Position numbers and translations under genes: made by a program
Assembly (NCBI GenBank): GCA_965226375.1
Contig: CBDDCX010000008.1
Coordinates: 896,001 to 960,000, forward strand
DNA: 64,000 bases
Direction of reading: 5' to 3'
DNA from: Longimicrobiales bacterium
GTDB taxonomy: Bacteria; Gemmatimonadota; Gemmatimonadetes; Longimicrobiales; Gaopeijiaceae
The notes under the pieces: generated by a model
Database searches by the model: none
Seen by the model: the letters and a program-made list of their open reading frames with translations, nothing else
Told to the model about the DNA's origin: nothing
In this document: in pieces, positions 6,462-64,000 of the stretch
How the letters are laid out: the number at the start of each line of letters is the position of its first letter
How positions within the stretch are numbered: the first letter of the stretch is position 1

Positions 6462-7788
6462 GGTCAAGTCCCGAGTTGTGTGTAAAAGTGAGAGGAAGCT
6501 CCTCGATGCTTCGGTTAGGCTGCCTTGGCGACCTCCTTGGGTTCGAGAAGCGTGAGATCGAGGTAGCGGCGTTCGCTCCAGACCGCAGTAGTCTTCAGAG
6601 CAACCGCGGTGATGAGGCGGAGCGCACTGGCTCGGTCGGGGAAGGCGCCGGCGCTCCGGATCCGACGCTTGATCTCGGTGTGCAGGCGCTCGAGGCTGTT
6701 CGTGGTGCGTAGCCTGGCCCAGTGGGGCTCGGGGAACGCGTAGAACTGGGTGGCGGCCGTGAAGCCCCGCTCGAGCACCTTCATTGCCTCGGGGAGCTCC
6801 TCTTGCCAGCGCGTCGTGATCTCGGCCAGGCGCTTCTTCGCCTCAGCGAGCCCGGGGGCCCGGAAGACGGCGGCAACCTCGCGCGCCACACGCTTGCGCA
6901 GGCGATGCGGGACCTTGGCCAGCACGTTGCGTTGCAGGTGCACGGTGCAGCGCTGACGGCGCACCTCAGGCAGGAAGCGGCGCACCGCAGCTGCCAGGCC
7001 CGCGTGCTTGTCGGCGATCACCAGTTCGACGCCGCTGAGACCTCGCTCCAGGAGCTGCTCGAGGAGCTCCGACCAACTGTCCTCTGACTCCTCAGGGCCT
7101 AGCGTGATGGCCAGGAGCCGGCGGTGACCGTCCGGATCCACCGCGTAGGCCACGAGCGCGCTCACGTTCTCGACCTTCCTGGCCCAGCGCGCATCGAGGA
7201 ACGTCGCGTCCAGATACAGATAGGGGTGAGGCCCCTCGATGGGTGCGCTCCGCAGCGCTTCTACAGCCCCATCGAGCCGCTTCGCGACCCGGCTTACCGT
7301 CGAGCGTCCCACGCGCTCACCCAGCAGTGCTTCAGTCACGTCGCCCATCTTGCGCTGCGACACACCGCTCACGTAGGCCTCCACCATCATCTCGTCCACT
7401 TCTTCACTCCTGCGCCGGTAGCGGCCCATCACGTCGGCGGGCGAGCCGCCTTCCCGGCTGCGCGGCACCATCACGTCGATCTGACCCAAGCTCGTGAGCA
7501 GGCGCCTGAGGTACGTGCCGTTCCTGTGGTCCTTCCGGCTGCCGACCCGCTCGAAACGACGCGCTCCGACCATCGCTTTCAACTCCTCCTCCAGCACCAT
7601 CTCGAGCGTAACACGAATCGCGCCCTGAAACAACGACTTCAAATCCTGCCGTAACTCTTCTTGCGTGGCCCGCTCAACTTCAACCATCTTTTCCATGAGG
7701 AAGCTCCTTTCCGGTTCCGGACCTGCTGGCGCAGGCCCGGACTCCCCGGGTTCGTGTCATGATGAACATTCACAAGGAGCTTCCTCTC
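6462..7788 (-). mobile_element. IS256-family insertion sequence (upstream end incomplete)
   Basis: End GGTCAAGTCCCGAGTTGTGTGTAAAAGTGAGAGG resembles IS256 termini; only 13 bp of inverted match at 7776-7788; no target duplication seen. Confidence 0.82.
6515..7696 (-). CDS. IS256-family (Mutator-type) transposase
   Basis: RNGTYLR, YLYLDA, IADKHAGL, QRCTVHLQRN, RTTNSLERLHTEIKRR. Confidence 0.95.
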   Translation of the reverse strand: MEKMVEVERATQEELRQDLKSLFQGAIRVTLEMVLEEELKAMVGARRFERVGSRKDHRNGTYLRRLLTSLGQIDVMVPRSREGGSPADVMGRYRRRSEEVDEMMVEAYVSGVSQRKMGDVTEALLGERVGRSTVSRVAKRLDGAVEALRSAPIEGPHPYLYLDATFLDARWARKVENVSALVAYAVDPDGHRRLLAITLGPEESEDSWSELLEQLLERGLSGVELVIADKHAGLAAAVRRFLPEVRRQRCTVHLQRNVLAKVPHRLRKRVAREVAAVFRAPGLAEAKKRLAEITTRWQEELPEAMKVLERGFTAATQFYAFPEPHWARLRTTNSLERLHTEIKRRIRSAGAFPDRASALRLITAVALKTTAVWSERRYLDLTLLEPKEVAKAA

Positions 7789-7816
7789 TTTTTCCCGGGC
7801 TGTCCACCCTCCCCGG

Positions 7817-7869
7817 ACAGCGCACCTGATGGTTAACACAAGTGTGCCAGCTGATGGTTAACAGATTGG
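7817..7869 (-). mobile_element. Solo right end of the IS481-family element
   Basis: 53-bp exact reverse complement of 12891-12943. Confidence 0.88.
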
Positions 7870-7930
7870 CTCGCGTTCTTCGCTTGCGCTCAGCATCTTT
7901 GGCGCGCAGCAGAATCGCAATCCGGTAGAT
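7869..7930 (+). repeat. attC-like site, 3' half
   Basis: 54/62 identical to 17044-17105; ends GGTAGAT (one change from GTTRRRY) just before a gene. Confidence 0.65.
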
Positions 7931-7947
7931 GGCCCAATGGACTTCAG

Positions 7948-8346: not shown

Positions 8347-8614
8347 GTGGGTGAGCAGGGCTCCGAGGTGGTGGCCCGCGTGCAGGAGCTGGAGGAACGC
8401 CTAAGGGTGGCTTACGGTGATTTCTAAACAGCTGCTGTCGCGGTGAGCAAGCTATCACCGCCCGTCTAAGCGACGAGAGCCTTCCGGCCTACCCAGGATA
8501 CCGAATAAACCCCGAAGAAGCTCAGAACGTGAATACAAGCGTCCAACGGTCTTCTGCTTGCGCCTACCGGACCGCTCTCGGATGTTGACCACGGCCTGAT
8601 CCCGGAGTGCGCCC

Positions 8615-9688
8615 GTGTCCGATTCCGTCGCTCGTCTGAACGCTGTCCTTGGTCGCGTCGCCTCTCTCATCTTTCCGGCTACCGTGCTGAGCCTGGCCCT
8701 CGCAAGCTGCTCAGGCTCGCCATCCGGCTCCACGGTGCTGACGGCCGACATGCCGCTGCATCTGGAGCAACACCTAGACGCTGCCACCATCGTCGGCTCC
8801 GAAGTGCCGGTGGACGCTCCGACCGTTATGGAGTGGCACTTCGACGAGCCGCAGGAAGACTGGTAGCCGGCGGTGCCGTGGAACCCTACGAACGAGCCAG
8901 TCGAGGTCACGCAGCTCGAGGACGCGGTTCGTGTCACGCTGACGGACGGTACGAGGAATCCGAACGGCTTGCCGAGGGGCGGCATCGTTTGAGACGTGCC
9001 CGATTGGGCCTACGAGGATCTGGCGCACCTCGTGGTGCGTGCTCGCACGTCCGATGATGTCAGGAACATCGTGATCAACTTCAACCGACGCGAAGGGAGC
9101 GGGACGGATACGGACTTCCCCATGCCATTCGCTCACCGAGGCGAAACGGTCCCTGTTGTAAGCGACGGTACGGTGCAGACCTACCGGCTGCGGCTGGATT
9201 TCTTTGGGTGGCGCCCACGACCTGAGGGATCGATCCGGCAGCTCGCCCTGTGGTTCGATCCCAGCGATCTGGCCAGCATCGACATCCTTTCCATTACACT
9301 GACCACGAAGGTGGCCAACTACGCCGAGACGGGCGCCGCCTCGCGCACGGAAATCCGCAACCGGATTCATCGGCAGGCTCTGTATACCCACACGCCGGGC
9401 AGCGTAGAGTATCGGGTGAAGGTCCCGGAAGGTGGTCGGCTGTTCTACCGCAATGGAGCCGACGAGTTGGTGGCTGCACAGGTCACTACAGGTCCAACGT
9501 TCACGGTGGGCCAGCAAGAGGTGCTGTTTTCCCTCGCCGGGTACTATTCCGGCAGGGGTCATCCTCAATACGACGTGACGCCCGACGATCAGCGATTCGT
9601 GATGCTGAGGTTCGGGGATGAGGAGAACGCCGAACTCGTCTTGGTCCTGAACTTCTTCGAGGAGTTGAAGGAGCGGGTGCCGAATTGA
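8615..9688 (+). pseudogene. Chimeric pseudogene: N-terminus of a sulfatase-like lipoprotein fused in frame to a Ser/Thr-kinase-type beta-propeller tail
   Basis: Paralog of the 10660 gene with in-frame TAG (8864) and TGA (8990); switches near 9440 to FYRNG...YDVTPDDQRFVM...LNFFEELKERVPN. Confidence 0.8.
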
Positions 9689-9734
9689 ACCGTCAGGTCC
9701 CTTGGCTGCGCGTCTTCGTGGAAGGCGTGGTGAT
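9653..9734 (+). repeat. 82-bp exact direct repeat, copy 1 (connector spanning a stop/start overlap)
   Basis: Identical to 15017-15098. Confidence 0.92.
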
Positions 9735-10401
9735 CGTCGGCTCAATCCTGCTGGCGTTCGGACTTCAGGCGTGGTGGGACGGCGTTCAGGCGCGTGCTAC
9801 GGAGCGGAGCTACCTGCTCTCGCTCGGCGAAGAGTTCAGGCAGGCGCGTCCCCAACCAATGCGCGAACGGTCCCTTCGCTACGTCGCAGCCCTCATTGAC
9901 CAAACGCAAGGCGAACGGCTTGATGAGCCCGACTCCTTGTACCGTTGGACCACAGGGCTGTCGCAGCAGATCGAGTTCGATCCACCGCGCGCTGTGTTTG
10001 ACGATTTGGTGTCAGCGGGAGCGACGCAACTGATACGATCAGACAGCCTCCGACGGGCATTCGCTCGCTACTCGTCCCGGTTGGCTGCGTTGCGGTACGC
10101 TGACGCCCAGGCCTGGGCAACATGGGAGCAGAGAATCCAGCCATTCCTCGAGGGTCGAGTCCCACGATTGGAGCGTCTCCGAAACGGCGGGTTCGGGGCT
10201 GCCCCAGACCTTGGCGTCCCATTCGGGCCCTCGCGCCATGCGGCGCAGTGGGAGGAGGTGCTGCGCAGCGCTGGCTTCGAGGACATGCTCGTCGAAAGAT
10301 GGATGCGCCTTCGGCTCGCTAAGCGTCGCTATGACGACATAGTCGAACTCTCCGAGGAAACCCTCCGCTTGATCGCCAAGGAATTGGAGGACCTTGGATA
10401 G
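9685..10401 (+). CDS. DUF6090-like membrane-anchored helical protein
   Basis: N-terminal EGVVIVGSILLAFG TM anchor; DLVSAGATQLIRSDSLR motif; TTG overlaps the upstream TGA. Confidence 0.75.
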   Translation: MNRQVPWLRVFVEGVVIVGSILLAFGLQAWWDGVQARATERSYLLSLGEEFRQARPQPMRERSLRYVAALIDQTQGERLDEPDSLYRWTTGLSQQIEFDPPRAVFDDLVSAGATQLIRSDSLRRAFARYSSRLAALRYADAQAWATWEQRIQPFLEGRVPRLERLRNGGFGAAPDLGVPFGPSRHAAQWEEVLRSAGFEDMLVERWMRLRLAKRRYDDIVELSEETLRLIAKELEDLG

Positions 10402-11160
10402 CCACACGAGCGTGCACCTTGAGATCAAGTTTGAAGTGCAACACGCAAGGGGTTCATGGTCACAGGTCGCGGACCCGATAACGCCCGTCTAAGCGACGAG
10501 AGCCTCCACCCTACCCCTGATACCGAATAAACCCCGAAGACGCTCAGAACGCGAATACAGGCCCCTAGACGGCTTCTTGCGAGGTCAGCGAGAAGTTGAG
10601 CTTGCGCTTCCCGACCTGCGGATAGGATGTTGAGCGGGTCTGATTGTGGAGGTGTGCCTGTGTCCGATCTCGTCGCTCGTCTGAACGCTGTCCTTGGTCG
10701 CGCCGCCTCTCGAATCTTCCCGGTTACGGTGTTGAGCCTGGCCCTCGTGAGCTGCTCACGCTCGCCATCCGGCTCCACGGTGCTGACGGTCGACATGCCG
10801 TTGCATCTGGAGCAGCACCTAGACGCTGCCACCATCGTGGGCTCCGAAGTACCGGAGGACGTTCCGACCGTTATGGAGTGGCACTTCGACGAGCCCCAAG
10901 AAGATTGGAAGCCGGTGGTCCCGTGGAACCCAACGCACGATCCGGTCGAGATCACCCAGCTCGACGACGCGCTGCGAGTCACGTTTACGGACGGTACGAG
11001 GAATCAGTACGGCGGGCTGGATGGCGGCCTGGTTCTGGAGGTGCCCGATTGGAACTACGAGGATCTGGCTCATCTCGTGGTGCGTGCTCGCACCGCCGAT
11101 GATGTCGGGGGCTTCAGGCTCGCCTTCAATCGACGTGAAGGGCCTGGGAGGGAGACACGC

Positions 11161-12946
11161 GGTACAGCCTACCCTGATCCTTTACACAATGGCCTACACT
11201 GATGGTTGACAGGTTCCTATCAACCAGGGTTCTGCAACAAGGAGAGCCCGATGGACTGGAACCGGTCGACCATGTACGAGCAAAGAGTACGCTTCATCCT
11301 CGAAGTGCAACAACGGACGTTCAGTTTCGCCGAGTCCTGTAGGCGCTACGGTATTAGCAGGACCGCGGGATACACCTGGTGGAATCGCTTCCGCGCAGAG
11401 GGATTCGAGGGACTTCAAGAGCGATCGCGCCGACCCCATCACTGCCCGCACGCCGTGGAGGAGCCGATCGTCGAACACGTCGTCGACCTGCGTCAGCGCT
11501 ACGGTATGGGGATCACGCAAGATCCGTAAACTCACGAGCTGAGAAGTTTGGCTCGGCCCCAGTTCGCAGGACGATCGATCGCATCTTCGAGCGTCACGAC
11601 CAGGGAAAAGTGACATCTACAGCCGCTACGTCGTGGGATGGATGGTGGCGGCGGGAGACGGCCTCCAGCAGAGCTGCCTGAAGCATGGCGTCCAGCCCCG
11701 GGTCCTGGCACTCGGATCGGGGAGCTCCAATGACGAGCCAATGCAGCTCAACTTCTCGCTGACCTCGGCGTGACCCGCTCGTTGAGCCGGCCTCAGGTGT
11801 CGGATGACAACCCGTTTTGAGTTCAAAACCTTGAAGTACCATCCCTCGTTTCCCGGACGGTCGGGGATCAGGGCCAAGCCAAGACGTTCTGTCGATCGTT
11901 CTTCCGCTGGAGCACCGCCATGGCGGCATCTCGCTAACCCCCGAGCAGGTCCACTTCGGGAACGCCGATCAGGTCATTGCCGGCAGGAAATCCGTGCTCC
12001 GCGAAGCATGGGCCGCTCATCCCGAACGCTTCGTCGCCGAAGCCCAAACCGCTCCCGGAGGCCGTCTTCATCAATCCTCCCATCCCTTCCCTCACCACAC
12101 AGGACATTGCTCTCTAATTAATCCCGTAGAGTGTCCCATTGTCGTTGACAATGCGGTCTGGACCGTCGACTTCAAAGGGCAGTTCAAGATGCGCAACGGT
12201 CGCTACTGCTACCCCCTCACGATCCAGGACGGCTTCAGCCGGTTCCTGCTCGAGTGCACAGGGCTGTATTCCACGTCGATCGAGCTCGCCAAGCCTGTGT
12301 TCATCAGGACTTTCCGCGAGTTCGGTCTGCCCGCCGTCATCCGCTCCGACAATGGTACGCCCTTCGCTTCCATCGGCCTCGCTCGCCTCACACGCCTGAG
12401 TGCCTGGTGGATCCGCCTCGGTATCCGTCCTGAGACCATCGAGCCGGGTAAGCCGCAGCAGAACGGCCGACACGAACGCATGCACAGGACCCTCAAGCGT
12501 GAAGCCACTCGCCCGCCCAAGGCCAACCTCAGTGCCCAGCAGCGCCACTTCAACGACTTCCGCCACACATTCAATCACATCCGCCCCCACGAGGCGCTCG
12601 ACGACGCTACTCCCCATTCCGTCTACCGATCGGCTCTTAGAGCCTACCCCGACGTCCTTCCGCCCATCGAGTACCCTGAGCACTTCGAGGTCCGTAAGGT
12701 CTCTACAAACGGAGCCATCCGCTGGCACTCGCGTTGGATCAACATCAGTTCGGCTCTGGGCAACGAGTTCATCGGGCTCGAACCCATCGGCCCCGCTCTG
12801 TGGCAGGTCTACTTCGGTCCCACTACCCTCGGGTGGTTTGACGAAGAACTCTTCGTCATTTTCGACACCCACGGTAACACAGGACGTAACCCAATCTGTT
12901 AACCATCAGCTGGCACACTTGTGTTAACCATCAGGTGCGCTGTTCA
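11161..12946 (+). mobile_element. IS481-family element, disrupted
   Basis: Imperfect inverted ends, each with two TGAT..TT.ACA units; flanking CGC/CACGC direct repeat; HTH N-terminus from ATG 11251 (frameshifts near 11506 and 11537); rve core WTVDFKG, SDNGTPF, NGRHERMHRTLK, RPHEAL to 12902. Confidence 0.9.
11611..12150 (+). mobile_element. Degraded IS3-family integrase fragment nested in IS481
   Basis: Pieces DIYSRYVVGWMVA, SDRGAPM, LLADLGVTRSLSRPQVSDDNPF, FKTLKYHPSFPGR, AAHPERFV across several frameshifts; end-like GTGTCCCATTGTCGTTGACA. Confidence 0.8.
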
Positions 12947-15016
12947 CGCTTCCGCCAGTACTTCGAGTACGATGGCGAGCCGGTCACTGTTGTAAGTGAC
13001 GGTACGGTGCAGACCTACCGGGCGCGGCTGGATTACTTTAGGGCTTCTCCACCGGAGGACCGATTCGGCAGATTGCCCTGTGGTTCAACCCCCGCGATCT
13101 GGCCAGCATCGACATCCTTTCCATCACACTGGTCCCGAAGGTGGCCAACTATGCCGACGCGGGTGCGGCCTCGCGCACGGAAATCCGCAACCGGGTCTAT
13201 CGGCAGGCTGTGTATACGCACACGCCGGGGCGCGTGGAGTATCGGGTAAAGATCCCTGAAGGTGGCCGTCTCGACTTCGCGATGGGTGTCTTGCGTGAGG
13301 ATGTGCCCGTGACCTTTCGGGTCACGGCGACCGCCGACGGTGCCGAAGGCAGTGAACCGACCACGCTGTTTGAGGAGCACTACGCGGCAAAGGAGACCTG
13401 GGGCCAGCGTTCGGTGGATCTGACCGACCTTGCCGGCCAGACGGTGACGCTCGGCCTCGAGGCCGATTCGGAAGCCGAAGGGCGGGTCGCTTTGTGGGGA
13501 GCGCCTACCGTGACGGGCGGCGGCCAGTCGTCTCTTCCCAACGTCGTCTTCTACGTCTTCGACGGCGGCGCAGCGGACTACATGAGCGTGTACGGCTACA
13601 ACCGTCGCACGACCCCGGCCCTGGAGCGGCTGGCCCAGGAGGGCGTCGTGTTCGAGCGAGCGTATAGCAATTCCAGTTGGACACTGCCCTCGCCCGCCTC
13701 GTTCATGACTTCCCTACAGACAGTGTGACGGGGGGCTTGCTCGGCACCAACGTGAACCCGATACCGGCCGAGGCCGTGACCATGGCCGAGCACGTACACC
13801 GGGCCGGCTACCAGACGGCGGTGTTCACGGGGAACCCCAACGCCGGGACTCTGAGCGATCTCCAGCGTGGGGTCGATCTGTTCCGGGAGGACTGGGAGGA
13901 CTTCTCGTACTTCGGTGGGAATAATCACAGGGAGTCCTCGACGTACCTGCACGAGGGATTCTGGAGCTGGCGGGAGGACTATCCCAGCCAGCCGTTTTGG
14001 GCGCACTTCCAGACGACTGACACGCATGAGGATTTCCCCGCCGTGGCTCCGTTTTCGGGGCTTTTTGTGAGTCCGGATCAGCTGGCGACGTGGCGCGTGT
14101 GGCAAGACTCCCTGGAGTCACTGGGCAACCACGGCGTCTACTCCGGGGCATGGGAGAAGTCTGGGCTGGACCGCGTGAAGTTCTTTGCCATGCACCAGGG
14201 CCTCTACGACGAAACCATGGCCCACAACGACTACCAGCTCGGGCGGCTGGTCGAACGTCTCAAGGCCTCAGGCGAATGGGAAAACACGTTGCTGATCATC
14301 GGGGGCGATCACAGCATTGAAGCGGCCATGGACGACATGGGCGTCGCGATCCAAGACTCGCTTCCTCCCCAATGGAGCCGGCCGATGTTCCGGCCCACGA
14401 TCTCCAGGGTGCCTCTCATGTTTGTGTGGCCGGGTCACATCGAGGGAGGACAGCGGATAGCCCCTCCCGTATCGATGATCGACGTACTCCCCACCCTGCT
14501 CGACCTACTGGGGCTCCCCCCTGCCGAGATCGCACAGGGACAGTCGCTGGCTCCTCTGATGATGGGTCGAGAGGGATGGGAGCTGCGCCCGGTAATCTTC
14601 GACGAGTTCTACTCAGATGCCCAGAACGGAGAAGTGTCGGGCGTTATTGAGGTGGTGGATGGCCGCTGGGAGTGCGACGCTGGAGAGTGTCATGGCCGCT
14701 GGGGTGCGATGGAGATCAATGGGGGGAACCCCGGAGAGAACGAGGGGGAGTGGAAGCGCCCCTCCCCGCTGCTGCTCTACGACCTGTGGAACGATCCGAT
14801 GGCGCTGTGGAGCCTGCACGAGGAACGGCCGGATCTGGTTGAGAAATACACTGCCTTTCTGGAACATCAGTTTGAGGCTCACATGGCCCTGTCTCAGTAC
14901 TTCACACGATCCGGCGATGTTGCGTTGACGCCGGAGCAACTACAGACGCTCCGCACGCTGGGCTACATCCGATGAAGAGGACCGTGAGTGCTGGCGGAGT
15001 CTGCCTCGTCCAGAAT

Positions 15017-15098
15017 TTCTTCGAGGAGTTGAAGGAGCGGGTGCCGAATTGAACCGTCAGGTCCCTTGGCTGCGCGTCTTCGTGGAAGGCGTGGTGAT
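15017..15098 (+). repeat. 82-bp exact direct repeat, copy 2
   Basis: Identical to 9653-9734. Confidence 0.92.
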
Positions 15099-15765
15099 TG
15101 TTGGGTCGATTCTGATGGCGTTCGGGATTGAGGCTTGGTGGGACGGTCAACAGCTTCGGCGGGATGAAGCTCAGGCGCTCGGGGACCTGCATACCGAGTT
15201 TGCAGCCAACCTCGACGGGATTGAGCGTATCACGCGGAGGCACCGAACTCTGATCTCAGCGGGGACCCAGCTCCTTGCTATGACTAGGGACCGTGATGCG
15301 ACCCCACCACGCCCTCAATTGGATACTCTTCTCTTCGCGTCCTTCGTGGACTACACGACCTACGACCCACAATCCGCTGCGCTGAGCGACCTCATCTCCT
15401 CGGGGCGACTAGGCCTGATCAGCGACGACACGCTCCGTATGGCCCTGGCCGACTGGCCAGCCGCGGTCGAGGACTTCATCGAGGAGGAGCGGCTGGTGGT
15501 CCGGCTTGTTGAGTCCTCTCTGCTACCCTACGTAACGGCGCGTGCAGCCACTGTTGACCTTTACCGTGCCTCCCGCGAAGCGTACGGATCATTCGCGCCG
15601 GGTCAACGCGATTCTGACCTCGCCGCGCTACTGGGTGCTCCGGAGTTTGAGAGTCATGTAGCCAATCGAGTTGCTCATGAGAGCCGCGCCCTCTACGAGC
15701 TTGAGATCATCCTCCGGCCACAAGTGGATATGATCCTGGAGCGGTTGGTGAGGGCCACTCGCTAA
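15049..15765 (+). CDS. DUF6090-like membrane-anchored helical protein
   Basis: Same N-terminus as the 9685 gene; DLISSGRLGLISDDTLR motif; stop lies within CGCTAAC. Confidence 0.78.
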   Translation: MNRQVPWLRVFVEGVVIVGSILMAFGIEAWWDGQQLRRDEAQALGDLHTEFAANLDGIERITRRHRTLISAGTQLLAMTRDRDATPPRPQLDTLLFASFVDYTTYDPQSAALSDLISSGRLGLISDDTLRMALADWPAAVEDFIEEERLVVRLVESSLLPYVTARAATVDLYRASREAYGSFAPGQRDSDLAALLGAPEFESHVANRVAHESRALYELEIILRPQVDMILERLVRATR

Positions 15766-15771
15766 CGTAGG

Positions 15772-15891
15772 TGAACAGCGCACCTGATGGTTGACACAAT
15801 GGTGCCAGCTGATGGTTAACAGATTGGGTTACGTCCTGTGTTACCGTGGGTGTCGAAAATGACGAAGAGTTCTTCGTCAAACCACCCGAGG
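15772..15891 (-). mobile_element. Solo right-end fragment of the IS481-family element
   Basis: Reverse complement of 12827-12946 with 3 differences. Confidence 0.9.
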
Positions 15892-16092
15892 CCGTGATCG
15901 ATTTCTTGATGCGGATGGGTCCCGCCACGAGCTGACCCGTGTTGCTCACGATGGCGATCACTGAATACGTTGCGTGTGCATCGATTCCTGCGACAAACAT
16001 GGCTGGCCTCCTTGGGTTGGGTGCCGCAGGTCCTTGAACAAGCCCAGCGTAACGCCCCGCTCGAGTGAGGTCAGCCCTTCGCCTTATAAGAT
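15892..16092 (-). mobile_element. IS110-family left end and transposase N-terminal fragment
   Basis: AAGGAGG RBS, ATG at 16000, MFVAGIDAHATYSVIAIVSNTGQLV (GID start of the RuvC-like domain); end reads ATCTTATAAGG. Confidence 0.72.
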
Positions 16093-16113
16093 CAGAATCG
16101 CAATTCGTTCGAG
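16093..16113 (+). repeat. attC-like site, 3' terminal piece
   Basis: CAGAATCGCAATTCGTTCGAG, 19/21 identical to 17085-17105. Confidence 0.6.
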
Positions 16114-16129
16114 CGCACTGGAGCTGAGG

Positions 16130-16741
16130 TTGTCAGAAGCGAGTTCGGGGATTCCGTTCAGAAGGGCCATCTTCGAGGGTGCGGTCATCCTCGTCCTCAT
16201 ACTCCTGATCGGAGTGTCATGGGGGTGCTCGTCTGATGCCACGGGACCACCGGACGCGCCGGTCGGCGGCGGCGAGGAAACGCCACTGCATGGTCCAGAG
16301 AACCCTGCCCTAGTCGGCGACACGCTAACCCTCTCGAATATCACCGGACTGCGCGGCGGTAACCGGGCTACCATCCGTCTCACGTACCTTGGTCATGTCG
16401 CGGGCGCCGCGGCGCTGGACACGGTGATGGCGGCCAACCAATTCAACGAAGAGCCACCGGCGGGCTTCGAGTATCTACTGGGCCGCTTTTGGGTGGAAAT
16501 CGTCCAGTTGGCCGACCCGGGTATCGCGTTCCGTATGTGGGACGGACACTGGGAATCCGTGTCGGGGGCAGGGGTGATCCATGAACAGCCACTATTTGGA
16601 GTCTGCTGTCTTGAGGAAGTGCTTGATGGGGAGGGGTTCAGGGGCAGGTCATGGGAGGGGTGGGTGCCGTTCTTTGTCTTGCCATCTGACGAAGGAGTGC
16701 TAGGCACCTACCAGCGACTGGTCTGGTTCAAACTGCGTTGA
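16130..16741 (+). CDS. Hypothetical lipoprotein-like protein (DUF4352-like Ig fold possible)
   Basis: TTG start after GGAG; hydrophobic segment then WGC; 'NQFNEEPPAGFEYL' and 'EGWVPF' segments. Confidence 0.6.
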   Translation: MSEASSGIPFRRAIFEGAVILVLILLIGVSWGCSSDATGPPDAPVGGGEETPLHGPENPALVGDTLTLSNITGLRGGNRATIRLTYLGHVAGAAALDTVMAANQFNEEPPAGFEYLLGRFWVEIVQLADPGIAFRMWDGHWESVSGAGVIHEQPLFGVCCLEEVLDGEGFRGRSWEGWVPFFVLPSDEGVLGTYQRLVWFKLR

Positions 16742-16996: not shown

Positions 16997-17105
16997 GCCT
17001 AACACCATCACGAAGGACCGGGTCAAGTAGTCCTGAGCATCCCGCTCGCGCGTTTCGCTTGCGGTCACCATCTTAGGCGCGCAGCAGAATCGCAATCCGT
17101 TAGAG
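16997..17105 (+). repeat. attC-like site (R'' GCCTAAC to R' GTTAGAG), left arm apparently partly deleted
   Basis: RYYYAAC overlaps the TAA of the upstream ORF; GTTAG end 23 bp before the next ATG; 109 bp long. Confidence 0.68.
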
Positions 17106-17128
17106 AGCCGCTGCCTGATGGAAGTGCC

Positions 17129-55049: not shown

Positions 55050-55147
55050 GAATAGCGGCCCCTGGGGCCGCTGCAGGAATAGCGGGGGCCGCTGCAGGAA
55101 TAGCGGCCCTTCGGGCCGCTGCATGAAGAGCGGCTTCTGGCCGCAAC
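55050..55147. repeat. Tandem REP-like palindromic units x4
   Basis: GAATAGCGGCCC-n-GGGCCGCTGCAG and variants at 55050, 55077, 55098, 55125. Confidence 0.85.
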
Positions 55148-62930: not shown

Positions 62931-63027
62931 GGGGGGCGCGGTGTCGCGCCGTCCCGGGGCGGCTGCTCCCCGAGGGCCCGGCCCCGCCTCCTGCAGATGC
63001 CCCGGGACGGCGCGACACCACACCCCC
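62931..63027 (-). repeat. Long hairpin element, copy A
   Basis: 21-bp perfect stem 62940-62960/62999-63019; core shared with 63209-63302 in inverted orientation. Confidence 0.85.
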
Positions 63028-63208
63028 GTACCAAGGTCGGGCTGTTCGAAGCGTTGGCATGCCGCTCGGAGACCGGGGTGGTCGGATGCCGCAGCCCGCG
63101 TCTGGGTGTTCGGGCGTTTGGCGTGGTAACACCATGAGCATCGCGAAAGCGGCAACCCGGCCGAGTATTCCCGCGCCAACGCCTAGGTCACCCACCCATG
63201 TCGTAGCA

Positions 63209-63302
63209 GGTGGCGCGTGAGGGTCGCTTCTCGGGGCATCTGCAGGCGGAAGGGCCGCGGGTGGGGAGCAGCCGCCCCGAGAAGCGACCCTCACGTGCCA
63301 CC
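63209..63302 (+). repeat. Long hairpin element, copy B
   Basis: 29-bp stem 63209-63237/63274-63302 with one G-T pair. Confidence 0.85.
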
Positions 63303-63311
63303 AACTAGCCC

Positions 63312-64000
63312 ATGAACAAACTCGTCCTTGATATGAAGGACAAGAGGCCCGTTTGGGCGCGACCCGACTGGTTCGTCCCGCATCTGCGTGAGGCCATGCC
63401 GGACGACTGGGAGATCGTGGTCATCGAGGAGGACGCGGACGGGTCTGGTGACGGGTCCAGTCGGGCCAGTGCGGGGGTGCTCGAGGCGGTGCGAGACGCG
63501 AGGGTCTATCTGGCGTTCGGTATTGCGGCCGAGGTGTTGACGGAGGGATGGGACCTCGAGTGGGTCCATACGGGTGCGGCGGGGGTGGGTAAGTCGTTGA
63601 CCCCTGAGATGCTTGCCAGCCCGGTCCGCTTCACGAACTCCGCGGGGATCCATGCGATTCCGATGGCGGAGACGGTGTTGGGAATGATCCTGTACTTTGC
63701 TCGCGGTCTCGACTTCGCGGTCGCCGGCATGGCCGAGGGAAGGTGGAGCACCGACTCGTACTACGAGGCGGCCTCGCCCATTCGGGAGCTGTCGGAGAGC
63801 GTGGTCGGGATCATCGGGGTCGGGGGGATCGGGCGGGAGATCGCGCTGCGGGCTTGTGCGTTCGGGGCGAGGGTCATCGGGCTACGGCGGAGCCCGGTGC
63901 AGGGCGGTGAGCGCCCGTCGTGGGCGGATGAAACGCGAGGTGGCGACATCCGGGTGGTGTCCGGTGAGGTCGGCTTCCAGGAGTTGCTGTCGGAGAGTGA
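63312..64000 (+). CDS. D-2-hydroxyacid dehydrogenase (runs off window)
   Basis: WVHTGAAGV, TNSAGIHAIPMAE, GIIGVGGIG read directly from ATG 63312. Confidence 0.9.
   Translation, partial: MNKLVLDMKDKRPVWARPDWFVPHLREAMPDDWEIVVIEEDADGSGDGSSRASAGVLEAVRDARVYLAFGIAAEVLTEGWDLEWVHTGAAGVGKSLTPEMLASPVRFTNSAGIHAIPMAETVLGMILYFARGLDFAVAGMAEGRWSTDSYYEAASPIRELSESVVGIIGVGGIGREIALRACAFGARVIGLRRSPVQGGERPSWADETRGGDIRVVSGEVGFQELLSES

Follow-up and report, generated by a model that had tools for sequence, protein, structure and literature searches.

The bridge RNA of IS110 insertion sequences (IS) was reportedly described by Durrant et al. in 2024. According to the accessible part of the study of Siddiquee et al. 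(2024; PMC11187229), a 3' seekRNA has been demonstrated for ISKpn4 and ISPst6, its top-strand match lying 5' of its bottom-strand match, and IS1111-type elements are told from IS110-type elements by a long 3' non-coding region, near-terminal repeats and the order of the guide segments. These two elements, together with ISPa21 and also ISPa25, belong to the IS1111-attC group, which lies in integron attC sites in one orientation, antisense to the cassettes, inserts near the 5' end of attC and has transposases called a monophyletic subset (PMC3001079, in the portion available). Integrons are also listed in Gemmatimonadota in the excerpt available of a review (PMC8618304). Here we analyse a window of 64,000 nt (contig CBDDCX010000008.1, 896,001-960,000) from a genome of eight contigs that is 90% complete (G000, the window genome), in which a short minus-strand remnant of a transposable element splits an attC-like sequence near position 16,000. 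We propose, with a probability of roughly 0.88, that an IS1111-type element went into the L' arm of an integron attC specific to this clade by means of a guide of the seekRNA or bridge type, and then decayed in this genome. Coordinates refer to the window unless a contig is named.

What survives is the left end of the element (Table 1). From 16092 the minus strand reads ATCTTATAAGG..., the end of the leader, AAGGAGGCCAGCC-ATG, places the start codon at 16000-15998, and the frame that follows opens with MFVAGIDAHATYSVIAIVSNTGQLVAGPIRIKK; on the plus strand the flank to the right of the leader tip is CAGAATCGCAATTCGTTCGAG (16093-16113). Aligned over 189-190 nt, the remnant shows 89-92% identity with the left ends of two full-length elements found in other genomes (E values of 1e-66 and 1e-71), and 29 of 34 alignable residues (85%) are identical to the N-terminus (residues 1-34) of a 345-amino acid transposase, P0002, so that, judged by these alignments, the stub is not a chance match. 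The 36-amino acid stub by itself gives no Pfam hit, being too short. Of its 36 codons about 33 are still homologous to the transposase, and in the alignment to full-length relatives IS homology stops near 15903 and is followed by 11 diverged bases. A preliminary description of this locus had given the remnant and its flank as 15892-16113; the stub within that span is real, but 15892-15902 is filler. The longer, 97-amino acid open reading frame (ORF) at 15707-16000 is a chance fusion, because transposase homology ends at about 15903 and 15771-15891 is a fragment of a different element, an IS481-like sequence that we call ISx.

Table 1. Features of the interrupted attC and of its surroundings in the window.
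Feature	Position	Strand	Remarks
ISx (IS481-like, rve integrase), degenerate full-size copy	11162..12947 (approximate)	+	Interrupts a sulfatase-like gene; reference for the fragments 7817-7870 and 15771-15891
Second relic attC, empty target	7871..7934	+	Break 7909/7910; left part replaced by 53-nt ISx end fragment 7817-7870; 43.2 bits
Possible R''-like box CGCTAAC	15760..15770 (box 15760-15766)	+	Overlaps the stop codon of ORF 15049-15765; canonical L'' arm absent after it; uncertain
ISx right-end fragment, 121 nt	15771..15891	-	Inverted; 98% identity with 12827-12947; rve, rve_3; terminus toward 15771, internal break joined to the stub
Deletion-junction filler, diverged	15892..15902	-	Keeps the frame of the stub ORF; aligns in part with the transposase gene past a 7-nt gap
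IS1111-type stub	15903..16092	-	Element positions 1-189 of ~1,458; blastn 89-92% identity to full-length elements
Stub ATG	15998-16000	-	Followed by ~33 codons homologous to the transposase
Stub leader, 92 nt	16001-16092	-	Starts ATCTTATAAGGCGAAGG, ends AAGGAGGCCAGCC
Inverted-repeat tip of the stub	16076-16092	-	Within the 92-nt leader
3' end of the interrupted attC	16093..16113	+	L' half (CAGAATCGC), spacer, R'-like box GTTCGAG (16107-16113); compared with the G002 attC alignment
Relic attC, empty target ...GCGCAG|CAGAATCGC	17005..17105	+	Break 17084/17085; right ~70 nt canonical, left arm replaced; 44.5 bits

The full-length homologues for which the preliminary description had called are present in sister genomes, where they carry both DEDD_Tnp_IS110 and Transposase_20. 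Complete copies from several genera are 1,423-1,463 bp long with an ORF of 338-345 amino acids; in ten relatives the leader measures 66-121 nt (mostly 91-97) and the 3' non-coding region 307-334 nt. The element in its full form, of about 1,458 bp, consists of a 92-nt leader, the gene for a 345-amino acid DEDD recombinase (the relative P0002 scores 55 bits for DEDD_Tnp_IS110, PF01548, and 57 bits for Transposase_20, PF02371) and about 329 nt of 3' non-coding sequence. The stub was first labelled as IS110 family, but the architecture of the element is of the IS1111 type rather than the IS110 type. The long non-coding region lies downstream of the gene in the ten relatives (it is deleted from the window copy), and there are sub-terminal, in fact almost terminal, inverted repeats, the left ATCTTATAAGGCGAAGG being matched by a right end ...CCTTCGCCTTATAGAT(G). 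Outside these repeats the element would extend by 0-4 bp at its left end and by 1-3 bp at its right end, ranges that reflect how a shared TG is assigned; for IS1111 the extensions are described as asymmetric, with 7 (or 6) bp at the left end and 3 bp at the right (PMC11187229, part available). The motif TTGAC is conserved about 18 nt from the right tip in the nine right ends read, yet no convincing, fitting -10 box for a junction promoter was seen in the abutted ends.

The transposase family is common in metagenomes. With a 174-amino acid relative as query, searches of 150 related genomes and the window genome gave matches in 26 genomes, and the window genome itself has no protein match at E<=1e-10. 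Among 8,000 candidates scored, at least 937 metagenome protein clusters match at E<=1e-20. The hosts of the 34 loci that we collected, in species-representative genomes, are metagenome-assembled genomes (MAGs) of Gemmatimonadota, Longimicrobiales or Gemmatimonadales, with one Deltaproteobacteria, as labelled; going by these labels, the window genome too would belong to Gemmatimonadota. In a search of 72,556 plasmid records, 1,263 match at E<=1e-3, with at most 33% identity over most of the protein and short local matches of up to 36%. The transposase has no sequence match in the PDB at E<=0.001.

The sequence into which the element inserted had been called attC-like, and it does belong to a true attC family, although the copies in the window are relics without a left arm. 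Uninterrupted copies of the window repeat (about 66 nt; 7869-7934 and 17044-17109) read ...GGCGCGCAG|CAGAATCGCAATCCG..., the bar marking the break, and comparison with G002, a genome of the same genus, identifies the repeat as the 3' two-thirds of an attC of about 100 nt. G002 has 30 matches to the repeat, many of them in same-strand arrays with a spacing of about 0.6-0.8 kb, and one such array (C3:1022197-1027260) lies directly downstream, on the same strand, of an integron integrase gene (C3:1028977-1029906) whose product scores 335 bits against a TIGR02249 cut-off of 265. The full site runs from an R''-type box (e.g. GCCTAAC) through AAGCGATTGCTGC... and ...GCAGCAGAATCGCAATCC to an R'-type box (e.g. 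GTTAGGC), and TAAC and GTTA, within the YTAAC...GTTA boxes, are invariant in all 16 aligned G002 sites. In the consensus fold a left GCGATTGCT is paired with a right AGCAG..AATCG to form an L''/L' stem with a 2-nt bulge; only one stem pair co-varies, as the G002 sites are 86% alike. The most telling test for attC identity is the cassette-specific agreement between boxes that is expected of cassettes circularising through attC: in 11 of 12 consecutive G002 pairs the first 13 nt of a cassette match the reverse complement of its own R'' side at 11 positions or more, against a mean of 8.5 when all are compared with all.

A covariance model built from the 16 G002 sites, on which complete sites score 100-120 bits, finds independent sites in two other genera (95 and 61 bits), gives two weak hits in the window (44.5 and 43.2 bits) and 14 scattered hits, in no tight array, in the whole window genome. 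Beside the stub the R' side reads GTTCGAG, off the consensus GTTRRRY (the consensus for R'' is RYYYAAC). Contig 4 of the window genome does carry an integron integrase gene (309 bits); a search for repeats across some 18 kb to either side of it showed none that is attC-like, and none of the 14 model hits falls on that contig. The ORFs of the window are mostly without Pfam families, as is usual for cassettes, and the window holds the relics of a decayed cassette region. We also considered the window repeat as the start of a short minus-strand ORF (MVTASE...), as a Tn3-type terminal repeat and as the right end of an IS, and dropped all three since the G002 arrays show complete attC sites; a site-specific event at a shared left boundary, GCTCGCG, of the three truncated attCs was likewise rejected, the boundaries differing by roughly 4-12 nt.

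Three further observations concern these integrons. The G002 integrase gene (in C3:1021000-1031000, locus L049) is upstream of its cassette array and points in the same direction as the array; in classical integrons the integrase is divergent from the cassettes. Two attC sites stand about 0.9 kb apart at G000:C8:1936664-1937635, with scores of 67 and 52 bits. A sequence of about 25 nt (GTTCTATGAAAGAGAGTGTCAAGG...) follows attC R' boxes at G000:C7:273718-273805 and G000:C8:2261487-2261585 and in the left flank of locus L012 in another genus, and may be a shared cassette start or an array boundary.

Seen on the cassette strand, the element lies between GCAG and CAGAATCGC, within the L' arm and 15 nt 5' of the G|TT crossover (14 nt before the GTT of R'). 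The break first put forward, GCAG|CAGAAT, is exact, because both uninterrupted window copies show the undivided ...GCGCAG|CAGAATCGCAAT. We examined 17 left ends, 16 parsed by script and one (L038) read by eye. Twelve of them are flanked by AAC-N4-8-GYGATKCTG(CTG), the reverse complement of the attC L'-R' arm, and all 12 face R', with the transposase antisense to the cassettes. Nine break after ...TTCTG and three break 3 nt further on, after ...CTGCTG; these are at most 11 independent events, as the flanks of L003 and L007 are identical. In complete copies the other half of the attC, (G)CTGCGCG.CTAA.ATGGTGACCGCAAGCG..., is found past the right end. Stub, flank and full-length relatives thus agree on an element inside an attC site and antisense to its cassettes, as had been supposed, and the expectation that homologues share one attC position holds for these 12 in arm and orientation but not for the remaining five.

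The preliminary description had seen no guide in the leader and had noted that most of the element was deleted. Both statements are borne out, the reason for the first being that the guide strands sit in the 3' non-coding region, which is missing here. In ten aligned 3' regions, from elements whose transposases are 48-100% identical to P0002, a common plan is seen, with an outer helix (GGGG.G.GCTC with GAGC..CCCC), a 5' loop strand, an inner hairpin and a 3' loop strand ending in CTGAC. Three of the four pairs of the inner hairpin (GTCG/CGAC) change on both sides, and in the internal loop with its two helices 98.5% of the cells are paired and four pairs show compensatory change; none of 500 shuffles reaches the covariation score, and slid controls pair in 30-52% of cells (maximum 52.5%). 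The 5' loop strand is complementary to TG plus the right flank, and the 3' loop strand repeats the left flank through CTG together with the first bases of the left end, so that strands matching both sides of the break do occur in the non-coding ends of the relatives, where it had been proposed to look for them. The summed longest matches of the ten copies to their own targets are 13-17 (mean 14.8); 76 cross-combinations between guide groups have a mean of 10.0 and a maximum of 14, a control that is raised because many targets have common CTG-rich cores.

The loop strands differ between lineages together with the targets. The attC lineage has loop strands CGCGCAGCA / ATTCTG and sits in attC at ...TTCTG|, and the lineage that inserts 3 nt further (L069), after ...CTGCTG|, has loop strands re-registered by 3 nt, with longest matches of 10 and 10 nt. 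L018 and L070, with a 3' strand TTAAGCTG, occupy another attC-like arm, ...CATTTAAGCTG|, and L019 and L040 occupy a palindrome, ...GTTTCTG|CTGAAAC..., in both orientations; L021 is found at ...TCAGCTG|AAACGC... (9 and 8 nt) and L075 at a further, different site (10 and 8 nt). In the wider set of 34 loci, which overlaps the ten copies, 12 lack a full ORF by script and 14 were fully parsed; in 10 of these 14 the bottom strand matches over at least 7 nt and the top strand over at least 8. On the 3' side of the guide loop there is a second one, whose 3' strand repeats the right end (ATAGATG or ATAGGTG) over at least 7 nt in 7 of 11 lineages and whose 5' strand matches the left end poorly; this second loop fits a donor loop. 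The co-variation of loop strands with flanks across lineages points to guidance as in seekRNA and bridge RNA, in which case targeting would be RNA-guided and the RNA of the 3' region would be made and bound by the recombinase. Insertion of relatives into the same attC and target-matching guide strands in those relatives also uphold the earlier suggestion of an attC-targeting member in an under-studied lineage.

The leader carries a smaller structure of its own. A stem of GGCTGACCTC with GAGGCCAGCC, proposed to cover the ribosome-binding site (RBS), is complementary at 9 of 10 positions and is part of the minimum-energy fold, but the leader as a whole is not more stable than its shuffles (z -0.33). 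Since MAFFT/RNAalifold left the Shine-Dalgarno arms of the leaders unaligned, arms were instead searched directly against each other, and an equivalent stem between the 5' part of the leader and the Shine-Dalgarno/ATG region was found in all ten lineages; its 5' arm lies at nt 14-28, and 0-4 nt separate its 3' arm from the ATG. The arms show compensatory changes (GATGGCCTCC/GGAGGCCATC, GTTGGCCTCC/GGAGGCCAAC); in five of the ten lineages the longest perfect stretch is only 5 bp, not better than in shuffles. Stems that hide the RBS are a common device in insertion sequences, and this one may repress translation of read-through transcripts.

Several observations weigh against our reading. None of the attC copies in the window is complete, and that the target was functional when the element inserted is therefore inferred from relatives; 17005-17105 folds on neither strand into an R''/L''-L'/R' hairpin and its energy is not better than that of shuffles. 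Five of the 17 left ends (L004, L014, L037, L038 and L039) are not beside an attC arm, which means that specificity is leaky or that sites have been rearranged: L004 and L039 have only a ...TTCTG(CTG) end, L037, from the same genus, has an attC half on the right side only, and the site of L038 is not attC-like, yet has about 13 nt around the junction in common with the attC target. Four of the 14 parsed loci have weak top-strand matches, of 3-5 nt, and in a search of three full-length loci against Rfam 15 no RNA family matched, the only hit being a chance one to a snoRNA (E 0.21). The right junction of L016 (G002:C3, ~753823-757323) has two extra bases, AT, which are unexplained. Lastly, there is no informative microhomology at the junction between stub and ISx, and the deletion history is a reconstruction.

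Some of these loci show further detail. The extra AT of L016 equals the first two bases of the left end, and with AT counted the top-strand guide match is 6 nt, as against 8. In L014/L065 a second, partial tail comes directly after a complete element, its first base being the one that follows the element's bottom-strand guide segment (ACTGAGCC...); this looks like the insertion of one copy into the guide gene of another, or like recombination between the two there. For IS621 half-matched substrates are reported to be sufficient for recombination (bioRxiv 10.64898/2026.08.31.748434, part available), and by analogy half-match recombination is a possible explanation of the left ends outside attC.

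The loss itself is plain: the 3' 87% of the window copy is gone. Between the box CGCTAAC (15760-15766) and 16093 one would expect about 75 nt of attC and 1.46 kb of IS, and there are 121 nt of ISx, with its terminus outward, and 201 nt of stub. We envisage that an IS1111-type element of about 1.46 kb inserted in the L' arm of the clade-specific attC, that ISx inserted close to the 5' end of the same attC, and that one event, a deletion of some 3 kb with its endpoints within ISx and at codon ~36, would then have removed about 1.27 kb of the element, the guide RNA gene included, along with the 5' two-thirds of the attC; the order of the IS and ISx insertions cannot be told. The remaining stub is inert, having neither a catalytic domain nor a guide RNA, and the attC that it splits cannot fold as its left arm is gone. 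The right end of ISx occurs at least 14 times in the window genome.

It is conceivable instead that the stub arrived already broken, with the 3' end of the attC in a rearranged cassette or through recombination between IS481-like copies. The region is indeed heavily rearranged, with a segmental duplication, three ISx pieces and an IS256-family element within 10 kb, and complementarity at the level of cassettes is absent from the window, where no partner was found for any of the three R' sides or the two R''-like boxes. However, the junction of the stub is at an internal point of ISx and not at its terminus, and is thus neither a transposition joint nor a homologous exchange. Moreover, the window genome has a second stub, on contig 7, which shares the flank CAGAATCGCAATCCGTTG and retains no more than the leader and three codons, and no tRNA or tmRNA was found near it. 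The two stubs differ in truncation point and in upstream partner, which indicates separate local decay events, and we consider an arrival in the broken state unlikely.

An explanation without a guide would be that recognition goes by the shape of the folded, single-stranded attC hairpin, in the manner of the integron integrase, rather than by a short stretch of linear sequence, the matches between loops and flanks being incidental. The target in the L' arm does adjoin the bulged bases of the predicted attC stem, and ISKpn4 and ISPa11 have been noted in potentially folded targets (PMC11187229, part available). A structure is nevertheless hard to reconcile with the site of L038, which is unlike attC except for the stretch around its junction, with relatives of other loop sequence that sit in loop-matching sites such as the palindrome occupied in both orientations, or with two guide variants that are offset by 3 nt on one attC and keep register with their respective loop strands; recognition of the fold therefore seems improbable to us.

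That the retained left end is functional now, by promoting outward transcription or by yielding an RNA that regulates the downstream cassette ORF, for instance, would explain why all three remnants in the window genome come from the left end, and an outward promoter was once proposed for ISPa21 and ISPst6, but we hold this to be very improbable, since promoter activity of these two was negative or not reported (PMC3001079, in the portion available), a scan of both strands of 15600-16400 showed neither a sigma-70-like promoter nor a terminator, and the count is only three, while searches of other genomes used left-end queries, from which a left-end bias there follows.

The three remnants, found by blastn with two complete elements, correspond to IS positions 1-189, 1-100 and 57-82. 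The last, a 26-nt leader fragment at G000:C8:1937006-1937031, lies between the two attC sites at G000:C8:1936664-1937635 and is a third, almost erased insertion in the window genome. Elsewhere in the window, 7300-7816 (minus strand) encodes the N-terminal part of an IS256-family transposase (Transposase_mut, 96 bits), and this element apparently ends against the 53-nt piece of ISx (7817-7870). Three IS types thus come together no more than 120 nt from a relic attC. At G000:C8:978048-978141 an internal piece of ISx, with its break some 720 nt from the end of ISx, stands in place of the left part of a relic attC, which makes three joints of attC or IS relics to internal points of ISx (the other two are at 7817-7870 and 15771-15891). 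The segmental duplication (8483-9782 / 10505-15146) has 79-89% identity in five blocks; its first copy has stop codons, and its second is interrupted by ISx at ~11162-12947 and runs on into a sulfatase-family ORF (13677-14975). At 55050-55133 and 62932-63314 there are two sets of GC-rich hairpin-type repeats, one a short tandem family (GAATAGCGGCCCCTGGGGCCGCTGCAG-like, three copies) and the other a group of inverted repeats of 29-47 nt, and both look like repetitive extragenic palindromic (REP) sequences.

How does this locus compare with what is known? The target family in G002 resembles integron attC in its R''/R' boxes, bulged L''/L' stem, cassette spacing, box complementarity and adjacent integrase. 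A cluster of attC sites without an integrase is known as a CALIN, and the window genome differs from both CALINs and integron arrays in that its sites are scattered relics. In this genome the stub marks a decayed cassette region in which the element is extinct, the attC broken and the IS481-like element the active invader.

The likeness to seekRNA lies in the 3' location and in the order of the matches, the top strand coming 5' of the bottom strand (Siddiquee et al., 2024; PMC11187229, part available), and to seekRNA and bridge RNA alike in a second loop that repeats the right end and in guides that are naturally reprogrammed between relatives; the RNA described here differs in being predicted only, with no Rfam family. 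The relatives form a readable natural series of such reprogramming, with one attC at two registers, another attC-like target and palindromic repeats, which could inform design rules for IS1111-type guides. No description of this attC-targeting lineage of Gemmatimonadota was found in the accessible parts of the literature on Gemmatimonadota integrons and attC or on bridge RNA and IS110.

With the IS1111-attC group the elements share insertion in attC in a single orientation, antisense to the cassettes, as seen in all 12 left ends that adjoin attC. They differ in their hosts, which are MAGs labelled as Gemmatimonadota, and in position, the 3' arm (L') here as against the 5' end of attC there (PMC3001079, in the portion available). 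Klebsiella and Pseudomonas are not among the ten most frequent genera listed for the plasmid matches, and the lineage apparently stands outside the known group, to judge indirectly by the best full-length plasmid match, of 33% identity. It is tempting, though for now doubtful, to see in it an IS1111-type radiation of Gemmatimonadota's own, in which attC targeting arose independently of the proteobacterial group and on the opposite, L' arm, guides were re-registered by 3 nt along CAGCAG, and loops were retargeted to other attC families and to palindromes. If so, left-end-only stubs, half-matched sites and the duplicated tail would be by-products of a recombinase acting on partial matches, as in half-match recombination, and such elements would help to erode chromosomal integrons, as in the window genome. 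On the reading preferred here, radiation or not, attack on integron sites by RNA-guided IS extends past the clinical proteobacterial IS1111-attC elements to a distant lineage, in Gemmatimonadota, and to another position in attC. The mechanism is the one published in 2024, and our finding adds breadth rather than a new principle or system: this is a new lineage of an already known kind of element, present in the window only as a dead stub, independent-looking, and directed at the other arm of attC.

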